In this document: one piece after another, positions 52,404 through 64,000 of the stretch
Numbering within the stretch: position 1 is the first letter of the stretch
How the letters are laid out: every line of letters begins with the position of its first letter
Assembly: GCA_964460465.1 (NCBI GenBank)
Contig: CAYWSB010000001.1
Span: 14,577 to 78,576 of the forward strand
Origin: an uncultured Geminicoccaceae bacterium
GTDB taxonomy: Bacteria > Pseudomonadota > Alphaproteobacteria > Geminicoccales > Geminicoccaceae
DNA: 64,000 nucleotides
Reading direction: 5' to 3'
Program-made: the position numbers and the translations under genes
Notes under the pieces: generated by a model
Told to the model about the DNA's origin: nothing
Database searches by the model: none
What the model saw: the letters and a program-made list of their open reading frames with translations, nothing else

Positions 52404-52946
52404 CTAGTTCAAACGGTAGAAGTGATGGTTGCCGAGGGTCACCGTGCGGGTCGCCCCACGGCGGAGCCAGCCCGGCGTGCGCCGGAAGGTCTCGTGGAAG
52501 ACGACCGCTCCGCCGGTCGGGTCGGCTGGCCTAGCCTCGCTCAGCATCAGGTCGGCCACCTCCTGCGCCATCTGCCACTTGTCCATCTCGCTGGGCGTGT
52601 CGGACCTGCCGTCGCAGGTCCAGCCCCATTGGCAGCCCCGCCGCGTCGGCTCGTTGATGACCGCAGTGACGCTGTCGGGGAAGGCATCGGACTGGATCCT
52701 GTTGAGGACCACCCAGGCCACGGCGATCATGCCATCGCGACCCTCCGAGCGGGCCTCGTGATAGAGGTTCAGGGCGAAGAGCTCGCGCTCGGCGGCACCA
52801 GTCGCGGGGGCCGCCGTCGCGGTCGGGGCCACGGCAGCCGGTGCCGGCGGCGCCGTCGCTTCCTGCGCGTGGCCGGCCAGGGCCAAGCCGAGGACGAGGC
52901 CGGCGACTAGGGCCGACCCTCCGGACTTGCATGAGACGGGGCGCAT
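52404..52946 (-). CDS. SleB-type cell wall hydrolase
   Basis: LNLYHEARSEGRDGMIAVAWVVLNRI...FPDSV...Q... typical of Hydrolase_2/SleB; signal peptide. Confidence 0.8.
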   Translation of the reverse strand: MRPVSCKSGGSALVAGLVLGLALAGHAQEATAPPAPAAVAPTATAAPATGAAERELFALNLYHEARSEGRDGMIAVAWVVLNRIQSDAFPDSVTAVINEPTRRGCQWGWTCDGRSDTPSEMDKWQMAQEVADLMLSEARPADPTGGAVVFHETFRRTPGWLRRGATRTVTLGNHHFYRLN

Positions 52947-53178
52947 CCTCTTTCCTTCTATTGGTGATTGAGCCGAGTGCCAGACCCCACATCAGAGGCG
53001 GGTCGGCCAGCCGGTCGGACCACTCGCCGGGTATGCGCAGCTATCGAATCGCGGCAACGCCCGTCAACTGCGCCGACGACACGGTAGCCGTCACCGCCGC
53101 GCCACAGCCGCGGCGAAAACGTCGCAGGTTCTTTGCTGCACTGCACAAATTTCCATCTATGTGGGTGGTCAGCGCTCG

Positions 53179-53194
53179 CCGATAGCGCTATCGG
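53179..53194. promoter_or_regulatory. perfect 16-bp palindrome in the sleB-like / acyl-ACP synthetase divergent spacer
   Basis: CCGATAGCGCTATCGG read directly; sits in the lowest-GC part of a 620-bp non-coding spacer. Confidence 0.3.
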
Positions 53195-53566
53195 TTCGCC
53201 GATCTGCCGCTGAGCTTCACCGGAATCCTCAGTAGGTGTCTGTAACAAACTGCAACGCAACGTGATTCGTTCTTGTTGGTTGGGTGAAATAGGTAGAGGT
53301 CGGTCGAACCGCGTTAACCAACTTTGCGGCGCCAGAACCGTCCCGGCCACGGCGTGTTCGACAGGTTGGATCGTGGTTCAAGATTCGCGGCTCGCGCTGC
53401 CCCGCCACTCGCCGGCGGGCGGCATTCGGGACCGCACGTGGCTTCGGGGCGAAAGCGGCGTACCGCGCGGGTCCGAAGAGGGTGGCGTGGGCAGCGACGG
53501 GTGCTGCAACCGCCCCCGGGTTGGACGGGTTGGAAACGTCGAAACGGTGTCGAACGGAGTGCCTCT

Positions 53567-55366
53567 ATGATCGAAGTCACGCCCACCGCCAATGCGCGAC
53601 TGCCCCTGCGGGCCGGTGACTTCGCGACCCTGGCCGAGGGGCTCGACTACGCCGCGCGGGGTGAGACGGGGGTGAACTTCTTCTCCAGTCGCGGCTCGCT
53701 CGAGGCGGCGGTTCCCTACCGGATCCTGCGCGAGACCGCCCGGTCGATCGCCCGTCGCCTCGCCGCCACCTCGCTGGAGCGTGGCGACAGGATCGGCATC
53801 ATCGCCGAGACCTCGCCCGATTTCCTCGCCGTTTTCTTCGCCTGCCAGTATGCCGGCTTCGTCCCGGTACCGCTGCCGCTCAGCATCAATTTCGGCGGCA
53901 AGGACGCCTATGTCGAGCGGCTGCGCGGCATGCTGGCGGCCGCCGGTGCGAGGGCCGCGGTTGCCGGGCCTGAGTTGATCGCGATCCTGCGCGAGGCCAC
54001 CGCCACGACTGCTGTCGATTTCACGGCCACCGCCGACGAGATCCGCGACTGGCCGGCCACCGATCGGCCGCTACAACCGCTGGGCGCGGACGACGTCTGC
54101 TACATCCAGTACAGCTCGGGCAGCACCAGCTTCCCGCGCGGTGTGCTCGTCACCCAGGCCGCACTGGCCGCCAATGCCCGGGCGATCGCGACCGACGGCC
54201 TGGACCTGCGCGCTGGCGACCGCTGCACGTCCTGGCTGCCGCTCTACCACGACATGGGCCTCGTCGGCTGCTGCCTGACGCCGGTCATGACGCAGATCTC
54301 GGTCGACTACCTGAGCACGACGGCATTCGCCCGGCGGCCGCTGGTCTGGCTCGAGCTGATCTCGCGCATGGGCGGAACCATCTCGTTCGGCCCGACCTTC
54401 GGTTTCGAGCTCTGCGCCCGGCGGGCCGCCAACGGCACCGCGCGCGATCTCGACCTCAGCCGCTGGCGGGTCGCCGGCATCGGCGGCGAGATGATCCGGC
54501 CGCAGGCCCTGGCCGCGTTCGCCGACACGTTCGAGCCGATGGGCTTCGACGCCCGCGCCTTCGTGCCGAGCTACGGCATGGCCGAGGCGACGCTCGCCGT
54601 CACCTTCAACCGACTCGGCCGCGGCGTGCGCGTCGACCGGGTGGCGCGTGGCGACACCTTCGAGCGCGATCATCTGGCCCTGCCGGCGGGCGAGAGCGTC
54701 GGCCCCTCCGGCAGCCGCAGCTTCGTTGTCTGCGGCGCCCCGATGCCGGGCTACGCTATCGAGATCCGTGACGAGGCGGGCACCATCCTGCCCGAGCGTC
54801 ATGTGGGGCGCATCTGCATCAAGGGCCCGAGCCTGATGCAGGGCTACTTCCAGAATGCCGAGGCGACGGCCGCGGTGCTCAAGGGCGACGGCTGGCTCGA
54901 CACCGGCGACATGGGCTACCTGCTCGGTGGCGAGCTGGTCGTCAGCGGCCGGACCAAGGACCTCATCATCGTCGGCGGCCGAAACATATGGCCGCAGGAC
55001 ATCGAGTGGGCGGTCGAGAAGCTGGATGGCGTGCGTGCCGGCGACGTGGCCGCCTTCTCGGTCGGCGACGACCACGACCGCGAGCGGCTGGTGGTGGTGG
55101 TCGAGTGCCGGCTGCAGCAGCCGGCCGAGCAGGCGCAGCTGCGCCGTCTCGTGGCCACGGTCGTCAATCGGCTGGCCGGCGTTGAGTGCGAAGTGGTTCT
55201 GGCGGCGCCGCGGTCGCTGACCTTCACGACCTCGGGCAAGCTGAGTCGGGCGACCGTCCGGGACCACTTCCAGCGGGGTGTCCTGCGCGACCTCGCGGCC
55301 ACGGCCGACGAGCGGCAGGCACCCGCCGTGCTGCGTCCGACCCCGCTCCTCGCCGAGGCGAGCTGA
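53567..55366 (+). CDS. fatty acyl-AMP ligase / acyl-ACP synthetase of the bacterial ceramide cluster
   Basis: YIQYSSGSTSFPRGV AMP motif, FAAL-like architecture, GGAG RBS; synteny with reductase-ACP-Spt. Confidence 0.8.
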   Translation: MIEVTPTANARLPLRAGDFATLAEGLDYAARGETGVNFFSSRGSLEAAVPYRILRETARSIARRLAATSLERGDRIGIIAETSPDFLAVFFACQYAGFVPVPLPLSINFGGKDAYVERLRGMLAAAGARAAVAGPELIAILREATATTAVDFTATADEIRDWPATDRPLQPLGADDVCYIQYSSGSTSFPRGVLVTQAALAANARAIATDGLDLRAGDRCTSWLPLYHDMGLVGCCLTPVMTQISVDYLSTTAFARRPLVWLELISRMGGTISFGPTFGFELCARRAANGTARDLDLSRWRVAGIGGEMIRPQALAAFADTFEPMGFDARAFVPSYGMAEATLAVTFNRLGRGVRVDRVARGDTFERDHLALPAGESVGPSGSRSFVVCGAPMPGYAIEIRDEAGTILPERHVGRICIKGPSLMQGYFQNAEATAAVLKGDGWLDTGDMGYLLGGELVVSGRTKDLIIVGGRNIWPQDIEWAVEKLDGVRAGDVAAFSVGDDHDRERLVVVVECRLQQPAEQAQLRRLVATVVNRLAGVECEVVLAAPRSLTFTTSGKLSRATVRDHFQRGVLRDLAATADERQAPAVLRPTPLLAEAS

Positions 55367-55448
55367 GCGCCGGCGCCGCCTGCTGCAGGCGACACCGGCC
55401 GGGAAGGCCAACGCAGCGGCGGTCGTGCCGTGCGGTGCAACGGAGAGG

Positions 55449-56366
55449 GTGGTGGCAGGGATCGTCGCCGTCACCGGTGTCACGGGCTTCGTCGGCCGGA
55501 CCGTGGTCGCCGAGCTGGCGGCAGCCGGCTGGCCCTTGCGCGTGCTCTCGCGGCGCGGCACGATCGACCGAACGACGACCGTCCCGGGCGATCTGGACGA
55601 CCCGCGCGCCCTGTCGGCGCTCGTCCGCGATGCCGCCCACGTCGTGCACTTGGCCGGGCTGGTCAAATCCGCGCGCCGGGAAGACTTCACCCGGGTCAAT
55701 CTGGCCGGCACGGAGCGGCTGGTGCGGGCCATGGCGGGGGGGCCGGGGCGGCTGTTGCTGGTCTCCTCGCTGGCGGCACGTCAGCCCCAGCTCTCTGCCT
55801 ATGCCGCGAGCAAGCGCGCTGCCGAGGATATCGCCCACGCCATCCTCGGCCCTGAGCGCGTCACCATCCTGCGCCCGCCTGCCGTCTATGGGCCCGGCGA
55901 TCGGGCGACCCTGCCGATCTTCCGCCAGCTGGCAGGCGGCTTCCTCGTGGCCCCGGGGCCACGCGGCGCGCGATTCTCGCTGATCCACGTGGCCGATCTC
56001 GCGGCGCTGGTTGCCCGCCACCTGGACGGCAGCATGACCCTGCCGGCCCTTCTCGAGCCCGATGACGGACGGCCGTGCGGCTATGGCTGGGGGGACCTCG
56101 CGGCCGTGGCCTCTCGGACCACGGGGCGACGGGTGCGCCTGGCGCGGGTGCCGGTGCGGCTGCTCGAGATGCCGGCGCGGGCGGCCGATGCGCTGGCCCG
56201 GCGGTTCGGCCTCGACCTGCCACTCACTCGCGACAAGCTCGGCGAACTCGGGCACGGCCAGTGGGTCGCAGGGGGGCCGGCATTGCCGGATGCCGGTCCA
56301 CGCATCACCTTCGATGAAGGGTTCGGGCCGACCCTCGACTGGTATCGCGAGGCCGGTTGGCTCTAG
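55449..56366 (+). CDS. NAD-dependent epimerase/dehydratase-family reductase (CerR-like)
   Basis: VTGVTGFVGRTV Rossmann motif, YAASKRAAE (YxxxK). Start uncertain: GTG 55449 or 55452, with GTG 55425 as an alternative. Confidence 0.7.
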   Translation: MVAGIVAVTGVTGFVGRTVVAELAAAGWPLRVLSRRGTIDRTTTVPGDLDDPRALSALVRDAAHVVHLAGLVKSARREDFTRVNLAGTERLVRAMAGGPGRLLLVSSLAARQPQLSAYAASKRAAEDIAHAILGPERVTILRPPAVYGPGDRATLPIFRQLAGGFLVAPGPRGARFSLIHVADLAALVARHLDGSMTLPALLEPDDGRPCGYGWGDLAAVASRTTGRRVRLARVPVRLLEMPARAADALARRFGLDLPLTRDKLGELGHGQWVAGGPALPDAGPRITFDEGFGPTLDWYREAGWL

Positions 56367-56439
56367 TATGGCGCCGGCCCCGGCCAAGCGTCGCCGGGAC
56401 GATGCTGGTCGATGGTTGGCGGGTGTGGGAGAACGCGGC

Positions 56440-56682
56440 GTGGTCGAAAAGATCGAGATGGAGATCATGGCGCTGATGCAGCGCTACAATCCCGAGGGCA
56501 AACCGATCGACCGGTCGACCGAGATCAGCGCCGATCTCAACATCGATTCGGTGGCGGCCATGGACCTGATCATGGAGATCGAGGACAAGTTCGACATCGA
56601 CATCCCCATGAACCAGGTGGGCGAGCTCAAGACCATCGGCGACCTGATCGACCTCGCGGCCGGGCAGGTGGCCAAGACCTGA
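56440..56682 (+). CDS. dedicated acyl carrier protein
   Basis: DLNIDSVAAMDLIMEIEDKFDI (DSx phosphopantetheine site), 80 aa, GTG start with GGGAGAA upstream. Confidence 0.85.
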   Translation: MVEKIEMEIMALMQRYNPEGKPIDRSTEISADLNIDSVAAMDLIMEIEDKFDIDIPMNQVGELKTIGDLIDLAAGQVAKT

Positions 56683-56733
56683 GCCCGGGCAGAGCGATCG
56701 GACGGCGGGATTTCACCAGGAAGGCAGGGTGCC

Positions 56734-57936
56734 ATGGACATCTTCGACAAGTACGCCGGCATCGAGGAGCGGCACCGGGCCCTGCTCGGCGTCGGTGGCG
56801 ATCCGTTCGGCGTCAAGGTCGACCGCATCCTCTCGGCGACCGAGGCGCTGATCGACGGTCGCCACACCATCCTGGTCGGCACCAACAACTATCTTGGCCT
56901 GACCTTCGAGCCGCACTGCGTCGCCGCCGCCAAGGCGGCGCTGGAGACCGACGGCACCGGCACCACGGGCTCGCGCATCGCCAACGGCACCTACGATCGC
57001 CATACCCGGCTCGAGGCCGCCTTCGCCCGCTTCTTCGACCGCCGCAAGGCCATTGTCTTCACCACCGGCTACCAGGCCAATCTCGCCACCATCTGCGCCC
57101 TTGCCGGGCCCGAGGACATCATCCTCTGCGATTCCGACAACCACGCCAGCATCTGGGACGGCACGAAGCTGAGCCCGGCCGAGACGCATACCTTTCGGCA
57201 CAACGACCCGGACAACCTCGACCGCAAGCTCACCCGGCTCGCCGGCAAGGGCCAGTGCAAGCTCATCGTCGTCGAGGGGCTCTACTCGATGCTCGGCGAC
57301 ACCGCCCCCTTGCAGGAGTTCGTCGAGGTCAAGAAGAAGCACGGCGCTTGGCTGCTGGTCGACGAGGCGCACTCCTTCGGCGTCTACGGCGCGCACGGCC
57401 GGGGCGTGGCCGAAGCCCAGGGTGTGGAGGCGGACGTCGACTTCGTCGTCGGCACCTTCTCCAAGAGCCTCGGCGCCTCGGGCGGCTTCGCGGTGTCCAA
57501 CCACCCCAAGTTCGACCTGCTCAGACTGGCATCGCGGCCCTACATGTTCAGCGCGTCGCCGAGCCCGGCCACCATGGCGTCGGTCGCCGAGGCGCTGCAC
57601 CAGATCGAGACCCGCCCGGAGCTCAGGAAACGCATCTGGGCCAATGCCGAGCAGCTCCACTCGGGCCTGGCGGACCTGGGCTTCACCATCGCCTCGCCCC
57701 TGAGCCCGATCGTCGCCATCCGCATGCCGGACGAGGCGACCGCCGTCATGGCCTGGAACCGGCTGATCGAGAGCGGTGTCTACGTCAACCTGGCTCTGCC
57801 GGGCGGCACCCCGAACGGCGCATGCCTGCTCCGCTGCAGCGTGTCGGCCGCGCACGAGCCGGCGCAGATCGCGACGGTCCTCGGCCGCTTCGCCGCCCTC
57901 GCGAGCGAGCTCGACAGCGCCCGCAAGGCCGCTTGA
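56734..57936 (+). CDS. spt: serine palmitoyltransferase (alpha-oxoamine synthase family)
   Basis: GTNNYLGL, GTTGSRIANG, DEAHSFG, GTFSKSLG (PLP Lys); context with ACP, acyl-ACP synthetase and reductase. Confidence 0.8.
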   Translation: MDIFDKYAGIEERHRALLGVGGDPFGVKVDRILSATEALIDGRHTILVGTNNYLGLTFEPHCVAAAKAALETDGTGTTGSRIANGTYDRHTRLEAAFARFFDRRKAIVFTTGYQANLATICALAGPEDIILCDSDNHASIWDGTKLSPAETHTFRHNDPDNLDRKLTRLAGKGQCKLIVVEGLYSMLGDTAPLQEFVEVKKKHGAWLLVDEAHSFGVYGAHGRGVAEAQGVEADVDFVVGTFSKSLGASGGFAVSNHPKFDLLRLASRPYMFSASPSPATMASVAEALHQIETRPELRKRIWANAEQLHSGLADLGFTIASPLSPIVAIRMPDEATAVMAWNRLIESGVYVNLALPGGTPNGACLLRCSVSAAHEPAQIATVLGRFAALASELDSARKAA

Positions 57937-58134
57937 GAAAACACCCTTCGTTGACGCTTCATGATCGTCCTGTCAGCCGCAGGATCGGTGGCCTAGCCGT
58001 GCTCGTGGAATCGGCTCGATGCACCCTGGCAGCGTAGACGAAGGGGATCGGCGCCTGATGCGCCCCCCCTGTGCCATGCCCGGCTGTCGCCCCGGCAGCC
58101 GCCGTGAGTGTGTCATCCTGCTGGTGCGACGCTG

Positions 58135-58845
58135 ATGCGGGCGCTGCTGACCGCCCGGAGTCTCGATGCCGTGGCGGACGGCGCCTGGCTCCTGCGCGAC
58201 GTGTCGCTCGAGGTCGGCGAGGGGCGGCTGGTGGCGCTGGTGGGCGGGGCGCAGGCCGGCAAGTCGGTGCTGTGCGAGCTGCTGCTCGGGCTGCGCCCGC
58301 TGCGGGCCGGCATCTTGCAGCTCGGCGGACGGGATTTGGCGCCGCTCGGCCCGCTGGAGCGGCAGCGGCTGGGCCTGCGCTGCGCCTTCCAGGTCCCGCC
58401 ACTTTTCGCTGGCCTCACCGTGGCCGAGCAGCTGGCCCTCGCCACGCCCTCGGTCCGGCTGGAGAGCGGTGCCTTCGACCGCATCGCCGACTATCTGCCG
58501 GAACTCGCGGACCATCTCGCCCGACCGCTGGAGAGCCTCGACCTGGAGCTGCGCCGGCTGGTCGATCTGGGGCGGGCCCTGCTCGGCCTACCGCGCCTGC
58601 TCCTGGTTGACGGCCTGCTGCCGGCAGTGGGCATCGACCGAGCGGGCGAGCTGCTGGAGCATCTGCGCCGGGACGGCTACACGCTGCTGGTGACCGACCG
58701 CTATGCCGAGCCGCTGCTGCACCTCGCCGATGACGGGTACGTGATGGCCAATGGCCGGATCGTCGCCCGCGGCAGGCCGGACGCACTCCTGGCGGACGAC
58801 CGCCTGCTTGCGTCCTGCGCCGGCGATCCAGAGGCTTACGCCTGA
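58135..58845 (+). CDS. degenerate LivF-like ABC ATPase-fold protein (orphan)
   Basis: Walker A GGAQAGKS is intact. The signature position reads LDLELRR instead of LSGGE/Q, and Walker B reads LLLVDG (catalytic Glu replaced by Gly). Confidence 0.65.
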   Translation: MRALLTARSLDAVADGAWLLRDVSLEVGEGRLVALVGGAQAGKSVLCELLLGLRPLRAGILQLGGRDLAPLGPLERQRLGLRCAFQVPPLFAGLTVAEQLALATPSVRLESGAFDRIADYLPELADHLARPLESLDLELRRLVDLGRALLGLPRLLLVDGLLPAVGIDRAGELLEHLRRDGYTLLVTDRYAEPLLHLADDGYVMANGRIVARGRPDALLADDRLLASCAGDPEAYA

Positions 58846-58898
58846 AGCAACGAACGATCGGGCCCGTGGCCAGCAACGAACCCGACGCCACGATGTCT

Positions 58899-58926
58899 CA
58901 ACGCAAACGGCCCGCCGAAGCGGGCC
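58899..58926 (-). terminator. intrinsic terminator candidate downstream of the yccA-like gene
   Basis: GGCCCGC (58909-58915), CGAA loop, GCGGGCC (58920-58926); on the minus strand it is followed by GUUUGCGUUG. Confidence 0.5.
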
Positions 58927-58956
58927 GTCGCGTCGTCGAAGCCGATGACCGCTACG

Positions 58957-59670
58957 TCACTCGCGATTGCCGAACAGCTGCAGCAGCATGATGAAAAGGT
59001 TGATGAAGTTGAGGTAGAGGCTCAGCGCGCCGAGCACCGCACCCTTGGTCTGCACCTCGGCGCTGTCGAGAGCGTAGTATTCCTCCTTGATCCGCTGCGT
59101 GTCCCAGGCGGTCAGGCCCGTGAAGACCAGCACGCCGATCACGCTGATCGCGAAGTGCAGGGCCGAGCTCGCGACGAAGATGTTGACGATCATCGCGATG
59201 ATGATGCCGATCAGGCCCATGAACAGGAACGCGCCGAACTTCGAAAGGTCGCGCTGCGTCGTGTAGCCGTAGAGGCTCATGGCGCCGAACGTGCCGGCGG
59301 TGATGAAGAACACCCGGGCGATGCTGGTCCCGGTGAACGCCAGGAAGATGCTCGACAGCGACAGCCCCATGGCGATCGCGAAGGCCCAGAACGTGAGCTG
59401 CACCGCACTCGCGCTCATCGTCCGCGCCTTGGCCCCCAGAACGAAGATGAACGCAAAGGGGGTCAGCATGAGCACCCAGGTCAACGGCGTGCCCTGGATG
59501 TACTGGTAGTAGACGGGCGCGAACACAAACGCCGTGAGGCCGGTCAGAGCCAGGGCCAGCCCCATGTAGTTGTAGACCGACAGCATGTGGCTGCGCAGGC
59601 CGGCATCGATCTGCTCGACGCCGACACCGGCGCCGGCACGCGCCAGTCGCTGATCCATCCGTGGTTCCAT
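58957..59670 (-). CDS. BAX inhibitor-1 / YccA-family membrane protein
   Basis: DAGLRSHMLSVYNYMGLALALTGL..., 7 TM, GAGGTG RBS 6 nt before ATG 59670. Confidence 0.85.
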   Translation of the reverse strand: MEPRMDQRLARAGAGVGVEQIDAGLRSHMLSVYNYMGLALALTGLTAFVFAPVYYQYIQGTPLTWVLMLTPFAFIFVLGAKARTMSASAVQLTFWAFAIAMGLSLSSIFLAFTGTSIARVFFITAGTFGAMSLYGYTTQRDLSKFGAFLFMGLIGIIIAMIVNIFVASSALHFAISVIGVLVFTGLTAWDTQRIKEEYYALDSAEVQTKGAVLGALSLYLNFINLFIMLLQLFGNRE

Positions 59671-59856
59671 CCTCAGCACCTCTTTTTGTACAAGCCATCG
59701 GGCGGCAAATTCTGCGCTTCGATATATGGCGGAAGAGCATGTCTGATCAAGCGGATGCCGTACGCTTTGCAGCGCCGACCGGCAGCGCCTCGGGTTTATG
59801 ACTGAGATTTCATCGATCGGATACCAGCTCCTCTCGGCCGATGCTTGTGCTGGAAG

Positions 59857-62366
59857 TCAGGGACTGCGGAGGATCAGGGCCGCCGGAACGCCCAGCACCC
59901 GCCGCAGGCCGAGGATTCCGATGACGAGCGTTGCCGCCACCGCCGCGACGGGCACCACGGCCGCCAGGAACGGTGCCGGGCTCCAGGTCATGTCGAGGGC
60001 GAAGCGGACGATGACGTAGCTGGCGACGAGGCCGAGCGCGGCACCCAGGATCGCCGCCACGACACCGATCATCGCGTATTGCGCCAGGAAGATCCGCCCG
60101 ATCTGCCGGCGCTGCGCGCCTACCACCTTGAACAGCACGTTGCGCCGGAGCTGCTCGCGCCGGGCGGCGGCGAGGGCGCTGACCAGCACCGCCAGCCCGG
60201 TGAGCAGGGTGACCAGCGCCATCAGCCGGACGGCGAGGCCGATATTGGCAAGGATCGTCTCGATCCGGGCGATCAGGTCGGCGATCGCGAAGGGAGTGAC
60301 GTTGGGCAGCTCGCGCGCCATCCGGTCGAGCAGTGCCGGCTGGCCGGCGGGATCGATGTCGACCGTGGCGATGAGCGTGTGCGGGGCACGGTCGATCACG
60401 CCGGGGCTCAGCACGAAGACGAAATCGACCCGGCCCTCCGACCAGTCGATCTCGCGGCGCAGATTGGCGATCTCGGCCTCGACCATGCGGCCCATAACGT
60501 TGAAAGTGAGCGTGTCACCCACCCCGAGACCGTAGCCGATCGCCACCTCGTCCTCGACCGAAACGAGCGGCGGGCCGGCGTAGTCGGCCGGCCACCACTC
60601 GCCCGCGACGATGGTCTCTCCCGGCGGCGCCTCGGCGCGGTAGGAGAGGCCGCGGTCGCGCCGCACCGTCCAGCGCACGTTCTCGGCGATCTCGGCCTGG
60701 TCGACCGGCGTGCCGGCGATGCGCACCACCCGGGCGCGCAGCACCGGCTCGAGCTGCAGCACCCGCGCCCCGGAGAAGGACTCGACGATGTCGACGAACG
60801 CTTCGCGCTGGCTCGGCTGGATGTCGATGAAGATGCTGCTCGGCGCCGCCGCCGGCCGGCTCTCCACCAGCTCGCGCGAGATGCTGTGCTCGACCAGGAG
60901 CACCGTCGTCAGCACCGCCGTGCCGGCGGCAAGGGCCACCACCGAGGCCGTGACCACCCGCTCGCCGCGCCGGAGCTGGCCGAGCGCCAGCCGCAGCAGC
61001 CCCGCGCTGCGCTGCGCCAGGGCGGCCGCAGCCGCGAGCCCGTACGCCGCCAGCACCCGGATGAGCAGGGCCACGGCCACGACGATGCCGAGAAAGACGA
61101 GCGCGATCAGCGGGTCGGGCACGGCGAAGAGGGCCGTGGCCGCCAGGATCATCGCCACGCCGAGGAGCCATGGCCAGCGCCGCGGGGCGGGACGGCCGTG
61201 GGTCGCCGCGATGGTGTCGTCACGAAAAAGGGAGGCCGGGGTCACCGCCGTCGCCTGCAGGATTGGCAGGGCGGTGAACAGGGCGGCGATGGCGAGGGCG
61301 AACAGGGCGGCGGCCAGGATCGCCGACGGATGGATGCCGATGGCGAGCTCGATCGGCAGGACGCCGGCCGGCAGCCAGGCGATGGCGAAGGGCAGGGCGG
61401 TGCCGAGCGCCGCACCCAGCGCCAGCCCCGCCGCGCAGAGCAGCACGACCTGCAGGCCGCAGATGACCGCGACGTCCCGCGCCGTGGTGCCGATGCAGCG
61501 CAGCGTGGCGATCGTCCGCTGCCGGGAGCGGAGATGCGCGTCGACGACGATGCCGACGCCGAGCCCGCCGATCAGCAGCGCCGCGATCCCGGCGAGCGAC
61601 AGGTAGCTGGCCAGCCGGTCGCTCTGTCGGGCGATACGCGGCTGCACGGTCTCGAAGGTCTGCGCCCGCCAGTGCGCGTCGGCATGGTCGCGGCGCAGGG
61701 CGGCCGAAAGTGCCGCTGCCGAGCCGGGGTCGGCGAGGGCCAGGCCGTAGCTGTGCCGGGCAAGCGCTCCCGGGGCCAGGATGCCGAGTGCGGCCAAGGT
61801 CTGCTGGTGCACCATGACCCGCGGCCCGAGGCCGACGAAGCCGCCCAGCCGGTCGGGCTCCGCGACGAGGATGCCACGGATCTCGACCCGGCCGTTGCCG
61901 AGCTCGAGCGTGTCGCCGACGGCGACCTGCAGCCGCTGCAGCAGGCTGGCCTCGACCAGCGCCCCCCCGTCAGCCAGGGCGACCTCCAGCGGAAGGGGCG
62001 GATCGCTCGCGACCCGGCCGTAGAGCGGGTAGTCGTCGTCGACCGCCTTGAGGGAGGTCGCGACCTGCCGGCCGCTGTCGGCGAAGGCGATGGCGTTGGT
62101 GACGACCGAATGGCTGGACCGGGCATCGCCCGGGACGATCGTCGAAAGCTCGTCGGCCTCGAGCGCCCGGTTGGTCGACTCGATGACGAGATCGCCGCCG
62201 AGGAGCACCCGGGCGTCGCGCTCGACGGTCGCCATGACACTTTGCCGGAGCGAGCCGATGCCGGTGATCGTCGCCACGCCCAGGGTGAGACAGGCCAGGA
62301 TGATCAGGGCCGCCGCCCGGCTGCCGCGCAGGTCGCGCCACGCGATGCGGGCCAGGGTCGCGGTGC

Positions 62367-62370
<4 letters not shown>
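59857..62370 (-). CDS. FtsX-family ABC transporter permease (YbbP-like, duplicated FtsX domains)
   Basis: 837 aa, N-terminus LARIAWRDLRGSR, two 4-TM FtsX modules with large periplasmic loops; GTGA overlap with the ATPase gene. Confidence 0.85.
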
Positions 62371-63065
<695 letters not shown>

Positions 63066-63086
63066 GAAAGGCAGACTTCCAAGGTG

Positions 63087-63746
63087 ATGAGGCACTTGTG
63101 CAAAGGTGGGAGCCGGCGGCGGTTCCTCAACCTCGCGGTCGCGCTCGGCCTGCTGGCGGCGCTTGCGCCGATGCCGGCGCCGGCTGCCGGGTGCCGCATC
63201 GCCGTGCTCGGCGACTCGCTCGCCGCCGGCTACGGCGTGGCGCTCGAGGAGGCCTTCCCGGCCAGGCTCGAGGCGGCGCTCGCCGCGGCCGGCACGCCCT
63301 GCGAGGTGCTCAACGCCGGCGTCTCCGGCGACACCACGGCCGGCGGCCTCGCCCGGCTCGACTGGGTGCTGGGCGACGCGCCGACCCACCTCCTGGTCGA
63401 GCTCGGCGGCAACGACGCGCTCCGTGCCATCCCGGTGGAGGCCATGGAGGCCAATCTCGCCGGCATCATCGAGGGTGCGAAGGCCGCCGGGGCCGAGGTC
63501 ATGCTGGCCGGCATGCTGGCTCCCCCCAATCTCGGCGCCCGCTACACCGACGCCTTCGCCGCCGTCTTCCCGAGCCTCGCCGAGCGCTACGACGTGCCGC
63601 TCTACCCCTTCTTCCTCGACGGTGCCATCCAGGACCCGGCGCTGATGGCCGAGGACGGCATCCACCCCAACGCCGCGGGCGTGGCGGTGATCGTCGAGCG
63701 CATCCTGCCGCACGTCCAGGCCTGGCTCGACGGCGCCACCGACTGA
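63087..63746 (+). CDS. SGNH/GDSL arylesterase-thioesterase (TesA-like), secreted
   Basis: VLGDSLAAGYG (GDSL Ser), GVSGDTT, GGNDAL, DGIHPN blocks; divergent from ybbA/ybbP-like genes as in E. coli tesA. Confidence 0.85.
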   Translation: MRHLCKGGSRRRFLNLAVALGLLAALAPMPAPAAGCRIAVLGDSLAAGYGVALEEAFPARLEAALAAAGTPCEVLNAGVSGDTTAGGLARLDWVLGDAPTHLLVELGGNDALRAIPVEAMEANLAGIIEGAKAAGAEVMLAGMLAPPNLGARYTDAFAAVFPSLAERYDVPLYPFFLDGAIQDPALMAEDGIHPNAAGVAVIVERILPHVQAWLDGATD

Positions 63747-63879
63747 GGCGCCACGCGCGACGCATCGGCCGGCATCGAGTCAAGCATTCTTTCACCTTGA
63801 CGATGACCCCGCTCTGACCTGATCTACCGCCCGATCGGGGCGTGGCCGAACGGCCGCGAGGCGGCCCGGCCGGCACGAC

Positions 63880-63942
63880 TTACCCACATCTTGTTGATAG
63901 TCATGGGGATAGCGTGCGGGTTGTGGGTCGAGATGTGGATAA
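63880..63942. promoter_or_regulatory. cluster of DnaA-box-like 9-mers
   Basis: TGTGGATAA at 63934-63942 is the reverse complement of a perfect TTATCCACA. TTACCCACA at 63880-63888 has one mismatch. Weaker copies: TGGGGATAG 63904-63912 and TGTGGGTCG 63923-63931. Confidence 0.4.
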
Positions 63943-64000
63943 GCACGCGAACAACAGCCGCTCGAGCCCCATTGGCGGGCGCCCCTCCTTGCGGCAAAAT

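Follow-up and report, generated by a model that had tools for sequence, protein, structure and literature searches.

A 64,000-nucleotide stretch of DNA from an uncultured member of the alphaproteobacterial family Geminicoccaceae (hereafter the window, lying on contig C1 of genome G000; coordinates are those of the window unless a contig is named) carries four consecutive + strand genes, aasR, cerR, acpR and spt, at positions 53567-57936, in a host with a G+C content of 70%. These genes very probably make up an operon that begins ceramide synthesis of the Caulobacter type, with the gene for the bacterial ceramide synthase (bCerS) and those for later steps located on a second contig, C10. As lipid A synthesis and the canonical LptF/LptG transport pair have been lost from this host, the resulting sphingolipid is most likely the main lipid of the outer membrane's outer leaflet, as in Sphingomonas. 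Judging from gene content, we also lean towards the broader proposal that the operon would feed the chief lipid of the outer leaflet in an alphaproteobacterial lineage that, as the second to do so and independently of the Sphingomonadaceae, has exchanged lipopolysaccharide (LPS) for sphingolipids, a state that would hold in about half of the sampled Geminicoccaceae, with the cultured Arboricoccus pini and Benzoatithermus flavus among them.

The aasR-cerR-acpR-spt operon

The first gene of the operon, aasR (53567..55366, + strand), encodes a fatty acyl-AMP ligase/acyl-ACP synthetase for loading a dedicated acyl carrier protein (ACP). Its product matches the NCBIfam model NF006624 (fatty acyl-AMP ligase) with 776.8 bits against a cut-off of 600, matches PF00501 as well, and is 49% identical over its full length (566 aa compared) to the orthologue of Caulobacter sp. 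ErkDOM-E. The second gene, cerR (55452..56366, + strand), encodes an NAD(P)-dependent reductase of the epimerase/dehydratase family (Pfam PF01370 Epimerase, E 1.7e-22) that carries a GxTGFxG motif and is predicted to reduce the 3-keto group of a sphingoid or ceramide intermediate; the Pfam and NCBIfam libraries used hold no curated model for this protein, which is ~40% identical to the product of the Caulobacter sp. gene in the matching operon slot. The GTG start of cerR at 55449/55452 is preceded by a GGAGAGG Shine-Dalgarno sequence. A longer reading frame, starting at 55278 and overlapping aasR, was rejected as an over-extension, the homologues all beginning 5-10 residues before GxTGFxG. The third gene, acpR (56440..56682, + strand), encodes the dedicated ACP of 80 aa (74-80 aa, depending on the start chosen), and probably starts at the GTG at 56440, behind GGGAG, the alternative being an ATG at 56458; the N-terminal VVEKIE is kept in the related locus L002. 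AcpR matches PF00550 (E 3.5e-10), presents its phosphopantetheine serine within NIDSVAAMD (the DSV motif), and scores under the cut-off of every NCBIfam model for housekeeping AcpP. The fourth gene, spt (56734..57936, + strand), encodes serine palmitoyltransferase, the alpha-oxoamine synthase, dependent on pyridoxal phosphate (PLP), of the committed step, with 605.4 bits against the NF047599 serine palmitoyltransferase equivalog (cut-off 500).

Conservation of the operon was assessed in 80 related alphaproteobacterial loci drawn from a scan of species-representative genomes. The acpR gene lies immediately upstream of spt in 80 of 80, and 58 of the 61 loci that extend far enough upstream show the order aasR-cerR-acpR-spt; this arrangement is not due to chance. 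All four genes are under purifying selection, with dN/dS relative to the nearest relative, locus L001 (Spt 89% identical), of 0.14 for aasR, 0.30 for cerR, 0.13 for acpR and 0.12 for spt. A first-pass annotation of the window had proposed these four gene identities and their order, which family models and synteny with Caulobacter bear out, and had drawn a parallel with the five-gene ceramide set of Caulobacter (CC_1165-CC_1162 plus CC_1154; PMC11324152) that stands as drawn.

Loss of lipid A synthesis and the state of LPS transport

Searches of G000 with Pfam hidden Markov models returned nothing for LpxB, LpxK or WaaA, and its six-frame translation holds no homologue of Geminicoccus roseus LpxD, LpxA, LpxI or LpxB (phmmer, E below 1e-3). 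The G. roseus series rseP-bamA-skp-lpxD-fabZ-lpxA-lpxI-lpxB is colinear with C9:27394-21022 of G000, in which lpxD is gone between skp and fabZ (~110 bp apart, with no N) and lpxA-lpxI-lpxB are gone after fabZ. On the evidence of this sequence the lipid A synthesis genes are deleted in the host. What persists is an LpxC-like gene in the customary position after ftsA-ftsZ (C105:9611-10414, - strand; L125:2519-3685, - strand), the product of which scores 189 bits as against 325-361 bits in LPS-positive relatives. Aligned with LpxC of Pseudomonas aeruginosa and G. roseus, it shows the replacements His78 to Tyr, Lys238 to Ala and Asp241 to Leu, such that two of the three zinc ligands have been lost. 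In other family members without lipid A genes, this gene is split (G031), truncated (G026) or absent; 13 family genomes have none.

G000 has a single LptF/LptG pair, and this lies inside the sphingolipid gene block on C10. A tree of LptF was built with references that have both kinds of pair (Caulobacter sp., Aerophototrophica and Azospirillum sp.) and with the Spt-linked pair of Stella; it shows a deep split, with support of 100 on both sides, between Spt-linked LptF2 and canonical LptF, and the LptF of G000 is placed in the LptF2 clade. In Caulobacter, LptF2/G2 are genetically required for sphingolipid transport and bind the single LptB (bioRxiv 10.64898/2026.04.12.717747, a 2026 preprint). 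LptD is encoded on C140 and an LptA-like protein on C297, and G000 yielded no homologue of G. roseus LptC. Loss of LptB from G000, suggested by a family-wide search in which 51 of 206 candidates were scored, was rejected: lptB is present in the congener G022, and its expected site in G000, flanked as in that genome by the lptA-like gene and rpoN, coincides with the assembly gap from the end of C297 (near position 90) to the start of C219. Between a kpsF-like gene and lptB, G022 has only one gene, the lptA-like one.

Distribution across the Geminicoccaceae

Among 41 sampled Geminicoccaceae genomes of the Genome Taxonomy Database (GTDB), Spt and bCerS co-occur exactly, in 26. LpxB, LpxK and WaaA are all absent from 18 of these 26, the window genome included, along with G011 (one contig), G019, G024 and G003 (3 to 9 contigs), A. 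pini (G027) and B. flavus (G026); all three are present in six (G005, G010, G012, G033, G035 and G037), and the lipid A genes are partial in the other two (G007 and G028). Lipid A genes are found in 12 of the 15 Spt-negative genomes, including G. roseus DSM 18922 (G039), which has neither Spt nor bCerS, and the LptF is of the canonical type in the five that were put in the tree. The host of the window shares its family with Geminicoccus; an assignment to that genus itself was considered and rejected. Neither Spt/bCerS nor lipid A genes were found in genus g9 (G008 and G034) or in the 81%-complete G025. The two g9 genomes, of which G008 is estimated to be 100% complete, yielded no Spt, bCerS, LpxB, LpxK, WaaA or LpxC; G008 nonetheless has an LptF2-type LptF/G pair.

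Several observations weigh against the reading of a ceramide operon that supplies an LPS-free outer membrane. The G000 assembly consists of 333 contigs and lptB falls in a gap, so single gene absences are weak and the case for the loss of lipid A rests on synteny and on the 17 other genomes, one of them in a single contig and others in 3 to 9. The LpxC-like gene is still under purifying selection, with an omega of 0.20 against the congener G022; it is therefore maintained for some purpose and looks repurposed, not decaying. In genus g13 (G012 and G037, the latter being the genome of locus L004), LpxB, LpxK, WaaA and a full-score LpxC are kept while the only LptF/LptG pair adjoins bcerS, with an LptF2-type LptF in G012. 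An LptF2/G2-type pair alone thus does not mean that LPS is absent, and the g13 arrangement suggests either that LPS too can be handled by LptF2G2 or that loss of the canonical pair preceded loss of lipid A. Finally, homologues of several Caulobacter sphingolipid genes, CC_1159 (cpgA), CC_1158, CC_1152, lptC2 and CC_1167, were not found in the six-frame translated genome (tblastn, E 1e-5; phmmer, E 1e-3).

One alternative is that the ceramide pathway is real and accessory, as it is in Caulobacter, and that LPS is still made, the lipid A genes either falling in assembly gaps or having given way to analogues that escape recognition. The fragmentation of the assembly, with lptB lost between C297 and C219, would be in keeping with this, as would the retention of LptD, the LptA-like protein and an LpxC-like gene under an omega of 0.20, and the combination in g13 of lipid A genes with LptF2/G2 only. 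We nevertheless regard it as unlikely, because six genes at three or more loci are missing; lpxD and lpxA-lpxI-lpxB are gone from a colinear stretch of C9 free of N; 17 other genomes of the family, the one-contig G011 and the 3-to-9-contig G019, G024 and G003 among them, show the same pattern of absence; and the LpxC-like protein has lost zinc ligands. Retention of Lpt proteins is likewise seen in Sphingomonas, which has LptA, LptD and LptE yet is without LpxC, LpxB and WaaA, and so keeps these proteins without LPS (bioRxiv 10.64898/2026.04.12.717747).

Replacement of LPS by sphingolipids would also accommodate what look like intermediate states within the family, namely LPS only (G. roseus), LPS plus sphingolipid with both LptFG pairs (G005, G010 and G033), and LPS plus sphingolipid with LptF2G2 only (G012 and G037), leading to an apparent end state of sphingolipid only with a catalytically dead relic of LpxC, for which the window genome is a candidate. 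Since G000 belongs to a different family from Sphingomonas, the loss of LPS was probably independent. If the proposal is true, spt would be essential in the host, and LptB-F2G2 together with LptA and LptD would carry a sphingolipid. A search of the paper library used found no report of LPS loss in Geminicoccaceae.

Spt residues and substrate specificity

The solved structures closest to Spt are the enzymes of Sphingomonas wittichii (E ~1e-127) and S. paucimobilis (~1e-126), deposited as 2x8u/2jg2 (E 1e-126/1e-127), with Kbl following at 1e-65. The equivalents of His159, Asp231, His234, the PLP-binding Lys265 and Arg390 (S. paucimobilis numbering) are invariant in the Spt alignment. The equivalent of Arg378 is Leu in the Spt of the window, and the 81 Spt sequences of the ACP-linked subfamily, those from the Caulobacter spp. 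loci included, all have Leu, Val, Ile or Met there. The Leu had been considered as a possible defect of this Spt, and that explanation was dropped: the replacement runs through the whole subfamily and is therefore a subfamily trait.

The homology of Spt, Kbl, BioF and 5-aminolevulinate synthase (ALAS) means that the choice of substrate is not certain from sequence, and with the Leu in place of Arg378 this leaves room for an alpha-oxoamine synthase of other specificity, Kbl/BioF-like or acting on another amino acid, the product of which would be a non-sphingolipid acyl-amine. Such an activity is very improbable, given that Spt passes the equivalog cut-off for serine palmitoyltransferase and scores under those of all the Kbl, BioF and ALAS models, that the replacement at Arg378 is common to all 81 aligned Spt including those of Caulobacter spp., that two separate and more distant paralogues are encoded elsewhere in G000 (on C91 and C165), and that Spt and bCerS co-occur exactly across the 41 genomes.

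The ceramide synthase and the C10 gene block

The first-pass annotation had placed emphasis on the absence of an N-acyltransferase gene from the window. The query used to look for it was the 383-aa open reading frame (ORF) that follows lptF2-lptG2 in the complete Caulobacter sp. genome L053, taken as CC_1154/bcerS by gene position; the genes downstream of spt in L053 match the published order CC_1161...CC_1152 (PMC11324152). The sole match in the genome is at G000:C10:57916-59034 (E 4e-109, 48% identity over 372 of 383 residues), and the 64-kb window contains no copy. Neither bCerS nor the homologue of CC_1161 belongs to any Pfam or NCBIfam family, so the assignment of bCerS was confirmed instead by its homology to the gene in the CC_1154 position and by its fold: the AlphaFold model (38 homologues) has a predicted local distance difference test score (pLDDT) of 92, and its best matches in the PDB are acyltransferases with tandem GCN5-related N-acetyltransferase (GNAT) domains.

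The block on C10 runs in the order AI-2E transporter, 750-aa ELM1-like protein, FA_hydroxylase, bCerS, CC_1153-like protein, LptF2, LptG2, kinase of the diacylglycerol kinase (DAGK) type and CC_1161 homologue; the domains recognised are FA_hydroxylase, NTP_transf_3, two LptF_LptG proteins and DAGK_cat, and the neighbours of bcerS are homologous to CC_1153/1155/1156/1160/1161. The kinase, a homologue of the ceramide kinase CC_1160, is encoded at C10:63171-64070 (30% identity, DAGK_cat) and the CC_1161 homologue at C10:64144-65016 (36% identity). The first-pass annotation had proposed looking through the genome for bcerS and for ceramide-modifying genes, and both kinds are thus present on C10. 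Upstream of bcerS, the 750-aa protein (L082:6703-8955, + strand) has as its only match a Mito_fiss_Elm1 (PF06258) segment. The gene just upstream of bcerS (L082:9085-9846, + strand) encodes a 253-aa protein of the FA_hydroxylase family, a candidate sphingolipid hydroxylase or desaturase; such a gene adjoins bcerS in many loci of Dongiaceae, Azospirillum and Geminicoccaceae, and does not in Caulobacter.

In five metagenome-assembled genomes (MAGs) of Geminicoccaceae (L003, L005, L006, L008 and L010), a block of the C10 type is found directly downstream of spt, in convergent orientation, and L003:11963-18826 aligns to C10:65019-58091. The contiguous layout is therefore probably ancestral, and the split seen in G000 a local rearrangement. 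Separation of spt from the bcerS block is found again in the congener G022 and, as separate cases, in several more genomes of the family, in which bcerS is on another contig or far from spt; among the 44 loci flanked by at least 9 kb on either side, bcerS is within the flanks in 32 and outside them in 12, and its occurrence apart from spt has been described before (PMC11334938). The lack of an acyltransferase in cis is accordingly real, as annotated, and unremarkable, since bCerS in trans is common; it is a trivial rearrangement.

C10 ends ~460 bp past the CC_1161 homologue, in a 52-bp sequence that is present at more than 20 other contig ends. This sequence (...GCTGACCGTACATATCCTGCATTGTCGATGTAGTTTT) occupies C10:65427-65478, at the end of L082 and ~410 bp past the CC_1161 homologue, and also ends C1; it is probably the terminal repeat of an insertion sequence whose many copies break up the assembly. 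A placement of the C10 block next to spt, parted from it only by misassembly, was rejected, as C1 continues through 6 kb of unique sequence after spt and the same separation is found in G022 and several family genomes. It is hardly credible that the relocation of the bcerS block severed the operon from the rest of the pathway and left it silent or decaying, for although bcerS and the export genes no longer adjoin it, the C10 end is a repeat common to more than 20 contig ends, and a degenerate orphan ATP-binding cassette (ABC) ATPase gene found in none of the 80 related loci lies just 3' of spt, all the reading frames are intact with dN/dS of 0.12-0.30, the congener G022 and A. pini have the same split with genes likewise intact, and strong selection on the pathway is to be expected if lipid A is absent.

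Proposed pathway

In the ceramide pathway that we envisage, AasR would adenylate a long-chain fatty acid and load it onto AcpR, and Spt would form 3-ketodihydrosphingosine by condensing the acyl-AcpR and L-serine. The tandem-GNAT bCerS, supplied in trans from C10, would attach the amide-linked acyl chain and CerR would reduce the 3-keto group; the order of acylation and reduction is debated in Caulobacter. Later steps may be provided by the C10 block, through the FA_hydroxylase-family enzyme, the ceramide kinase homologue (CC_1160) and the homologues of CC_1161 and CC_1153, the last two leading to a phospho- or phosphoglycerate-type head group. As homologues of cpgA, CC_1158, CC_1152 and lptC2 were not found, the head group is unlikely to be that of ceramide phosphoglycerate 2 (CPG2) of Caulobacter, and the clusters of sister genomes likewise have no room for CC_1159, CC_1152 and CC_1158; our best guess is a ceramide phosphate or a mono-phosphoglycerate-type lipid. 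LptF2/LptG2 would then export the lipid from the inner membrane.

Comparison with known sphingolipid systems

The ceramide genes of Caulobacter crescentus (Olea-Ozuna et al. 2021, as cited in PMC11324152) are aasR-cerR-acpR-spt (CC_1165-CC_1162) and cerS/bcerS (CC_1154) in the CC_1168-CC_1152 region (PMC11324152; PMC11087976), and the genes for ceramide phosphoglycerate (CPG)/CPG2 and the LptF2/G2/C2 paralogues have also been published (PMC11324152, PMC11087976). G000 shares this four-gene set and its order, with identities of 49% for AasR, ~40% for CerR, 45% for AcpR and 55% for Spt, together with homologues of bCerS (48%), CC_1153, LptF2, LptG2, CC_1160 and CC_1161. It differs in carrying bcerS and the export and head-group block on another contig, in having the FA_hydroxylase and 750-aa ELM1-like genes upstream of bcerS, and in the lack of detected homologues not only of CC_1159, CC_1158, CC_1152 and lptC2 but also of CC_1166-1168, one generic flippase match on C138 apart. 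Caulobacter has lipid A genes and a canonical LptF/G pair, whereas G000 is without both.

Members of the Sphingomonadaceae such as Sphingomonas are LPS-free, have sphingolipids in the outer membrane and have kept the Lpt machinery (bioRxiv 10.64898/2026.04.12.717747). The gene content of G000 resembles theirs in the lack of LpxB and WaaA and the retention of LptA-like, LptD and LptF/G-type genes; sphingolipid genes are likewise scattered over the genome in Sphingomonas (PMC11324152), and the best solved relatives of the G000 Spt are Sphingomonas enzymes. In contrast to Sphingomonas, G000 keeps an LpxC-like relic, its Spt is of a subfamily that falls below the Sphingomonas-type NCBIfam cut-off (473 as against 670 bits), and its family includes relatives in intermediate states. 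The sphingolipid locus of Escherichia coli BL21 type (yghO/aca, aasR, epi, acpR, spt; Padilla-Gomez et al. 2022, cited in PMC11324152), compared here by description only, shares the core of aasR, reductase gene, acpR and spt and an LptF2/G2 pair in the locus, and differs in its gammaproteobacterial, LPS-bearing host and in its other head-group genes.

Phototrophy and significance of the system

The host makes bacteriochlorophyll, judging from its gene content, since pufL, pufM and bchY are present on contig C52, in agreement with the first-pass annotation. That annotation had further linked the sphingolipids to photosynthetic and intracytoplasmic membranes, a connection for which nothing in the analysis provides support. 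Phototrophic Sphingomonadales already combine bacteriochlorophyll with sphingolipids, and the occurrence of sphingolipids in producers of bacteriochlorophyll is not new. The outer membrane is the better place to look for significance, because the host is without lipid A synthesis genes.

As a ceramide operon, the four genes add one more lineage to a published and widespread pathway. It is their setting that is of interest, in a free-living, partly phototrophic and partly cultured alphaproteobacterial family in which lipid A synthesis appears to have been deleted and relatives are found at each intermediate gene state. The family thus allows tests of how LPS comes to be abandoned by a diderm, whether sphingolipids travel by LptB-F2G2/LptA/LptD as far as the surface, and what purpose is served by an LpxC-like protein without zinc ligands. 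Polar-lipid data have been published for Geminicoccus, a genus without the pathway (PMC9659566). The spots recorded as 'unidentified aminolipid/phospholipid' in descriptions of strains that have it may include sphingolipids.

Flanking sequence and neighbouring genes

Upstream of aasR, a 620-bp spacer (52947..53566), presumed to hold the promoter and leader, separates it from a divergent gene for a SleB-like cell-wall hydrolase, a neighbour also kept in L001, L003 and L004. Scans of 52800-58300 for promoters, terminators and Rfam families found in the spacer no sigma-70 consensus and no Rfam family, and a single weak terminator-like hairpin at 53110-53125.

Directly 3' of spt, the degenerate orphan ABC-ATPase-like gene (58108-58845, + strand) has as its best matches UrtE (78 bits) and LptB (75 bits), far under their cut-offs; none of the 80 related loci has it, not even the closest, L001, and it is outside the conserved sphingolipid system. 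The genes of 57937-64000 are ordinary housekeeping genes. Farther downstream lie a gene for a Bax-inhibitor-1/YccA family protein (58957-59679, - strand), a ybbP-like ABC permease gene called from its N-terminal sequence only (59857-62370, - strand), another ORF on the - strand (62367-63713), and, at 62472-63746 on the + strand, a GDSL lipase (TesA-like) domain.

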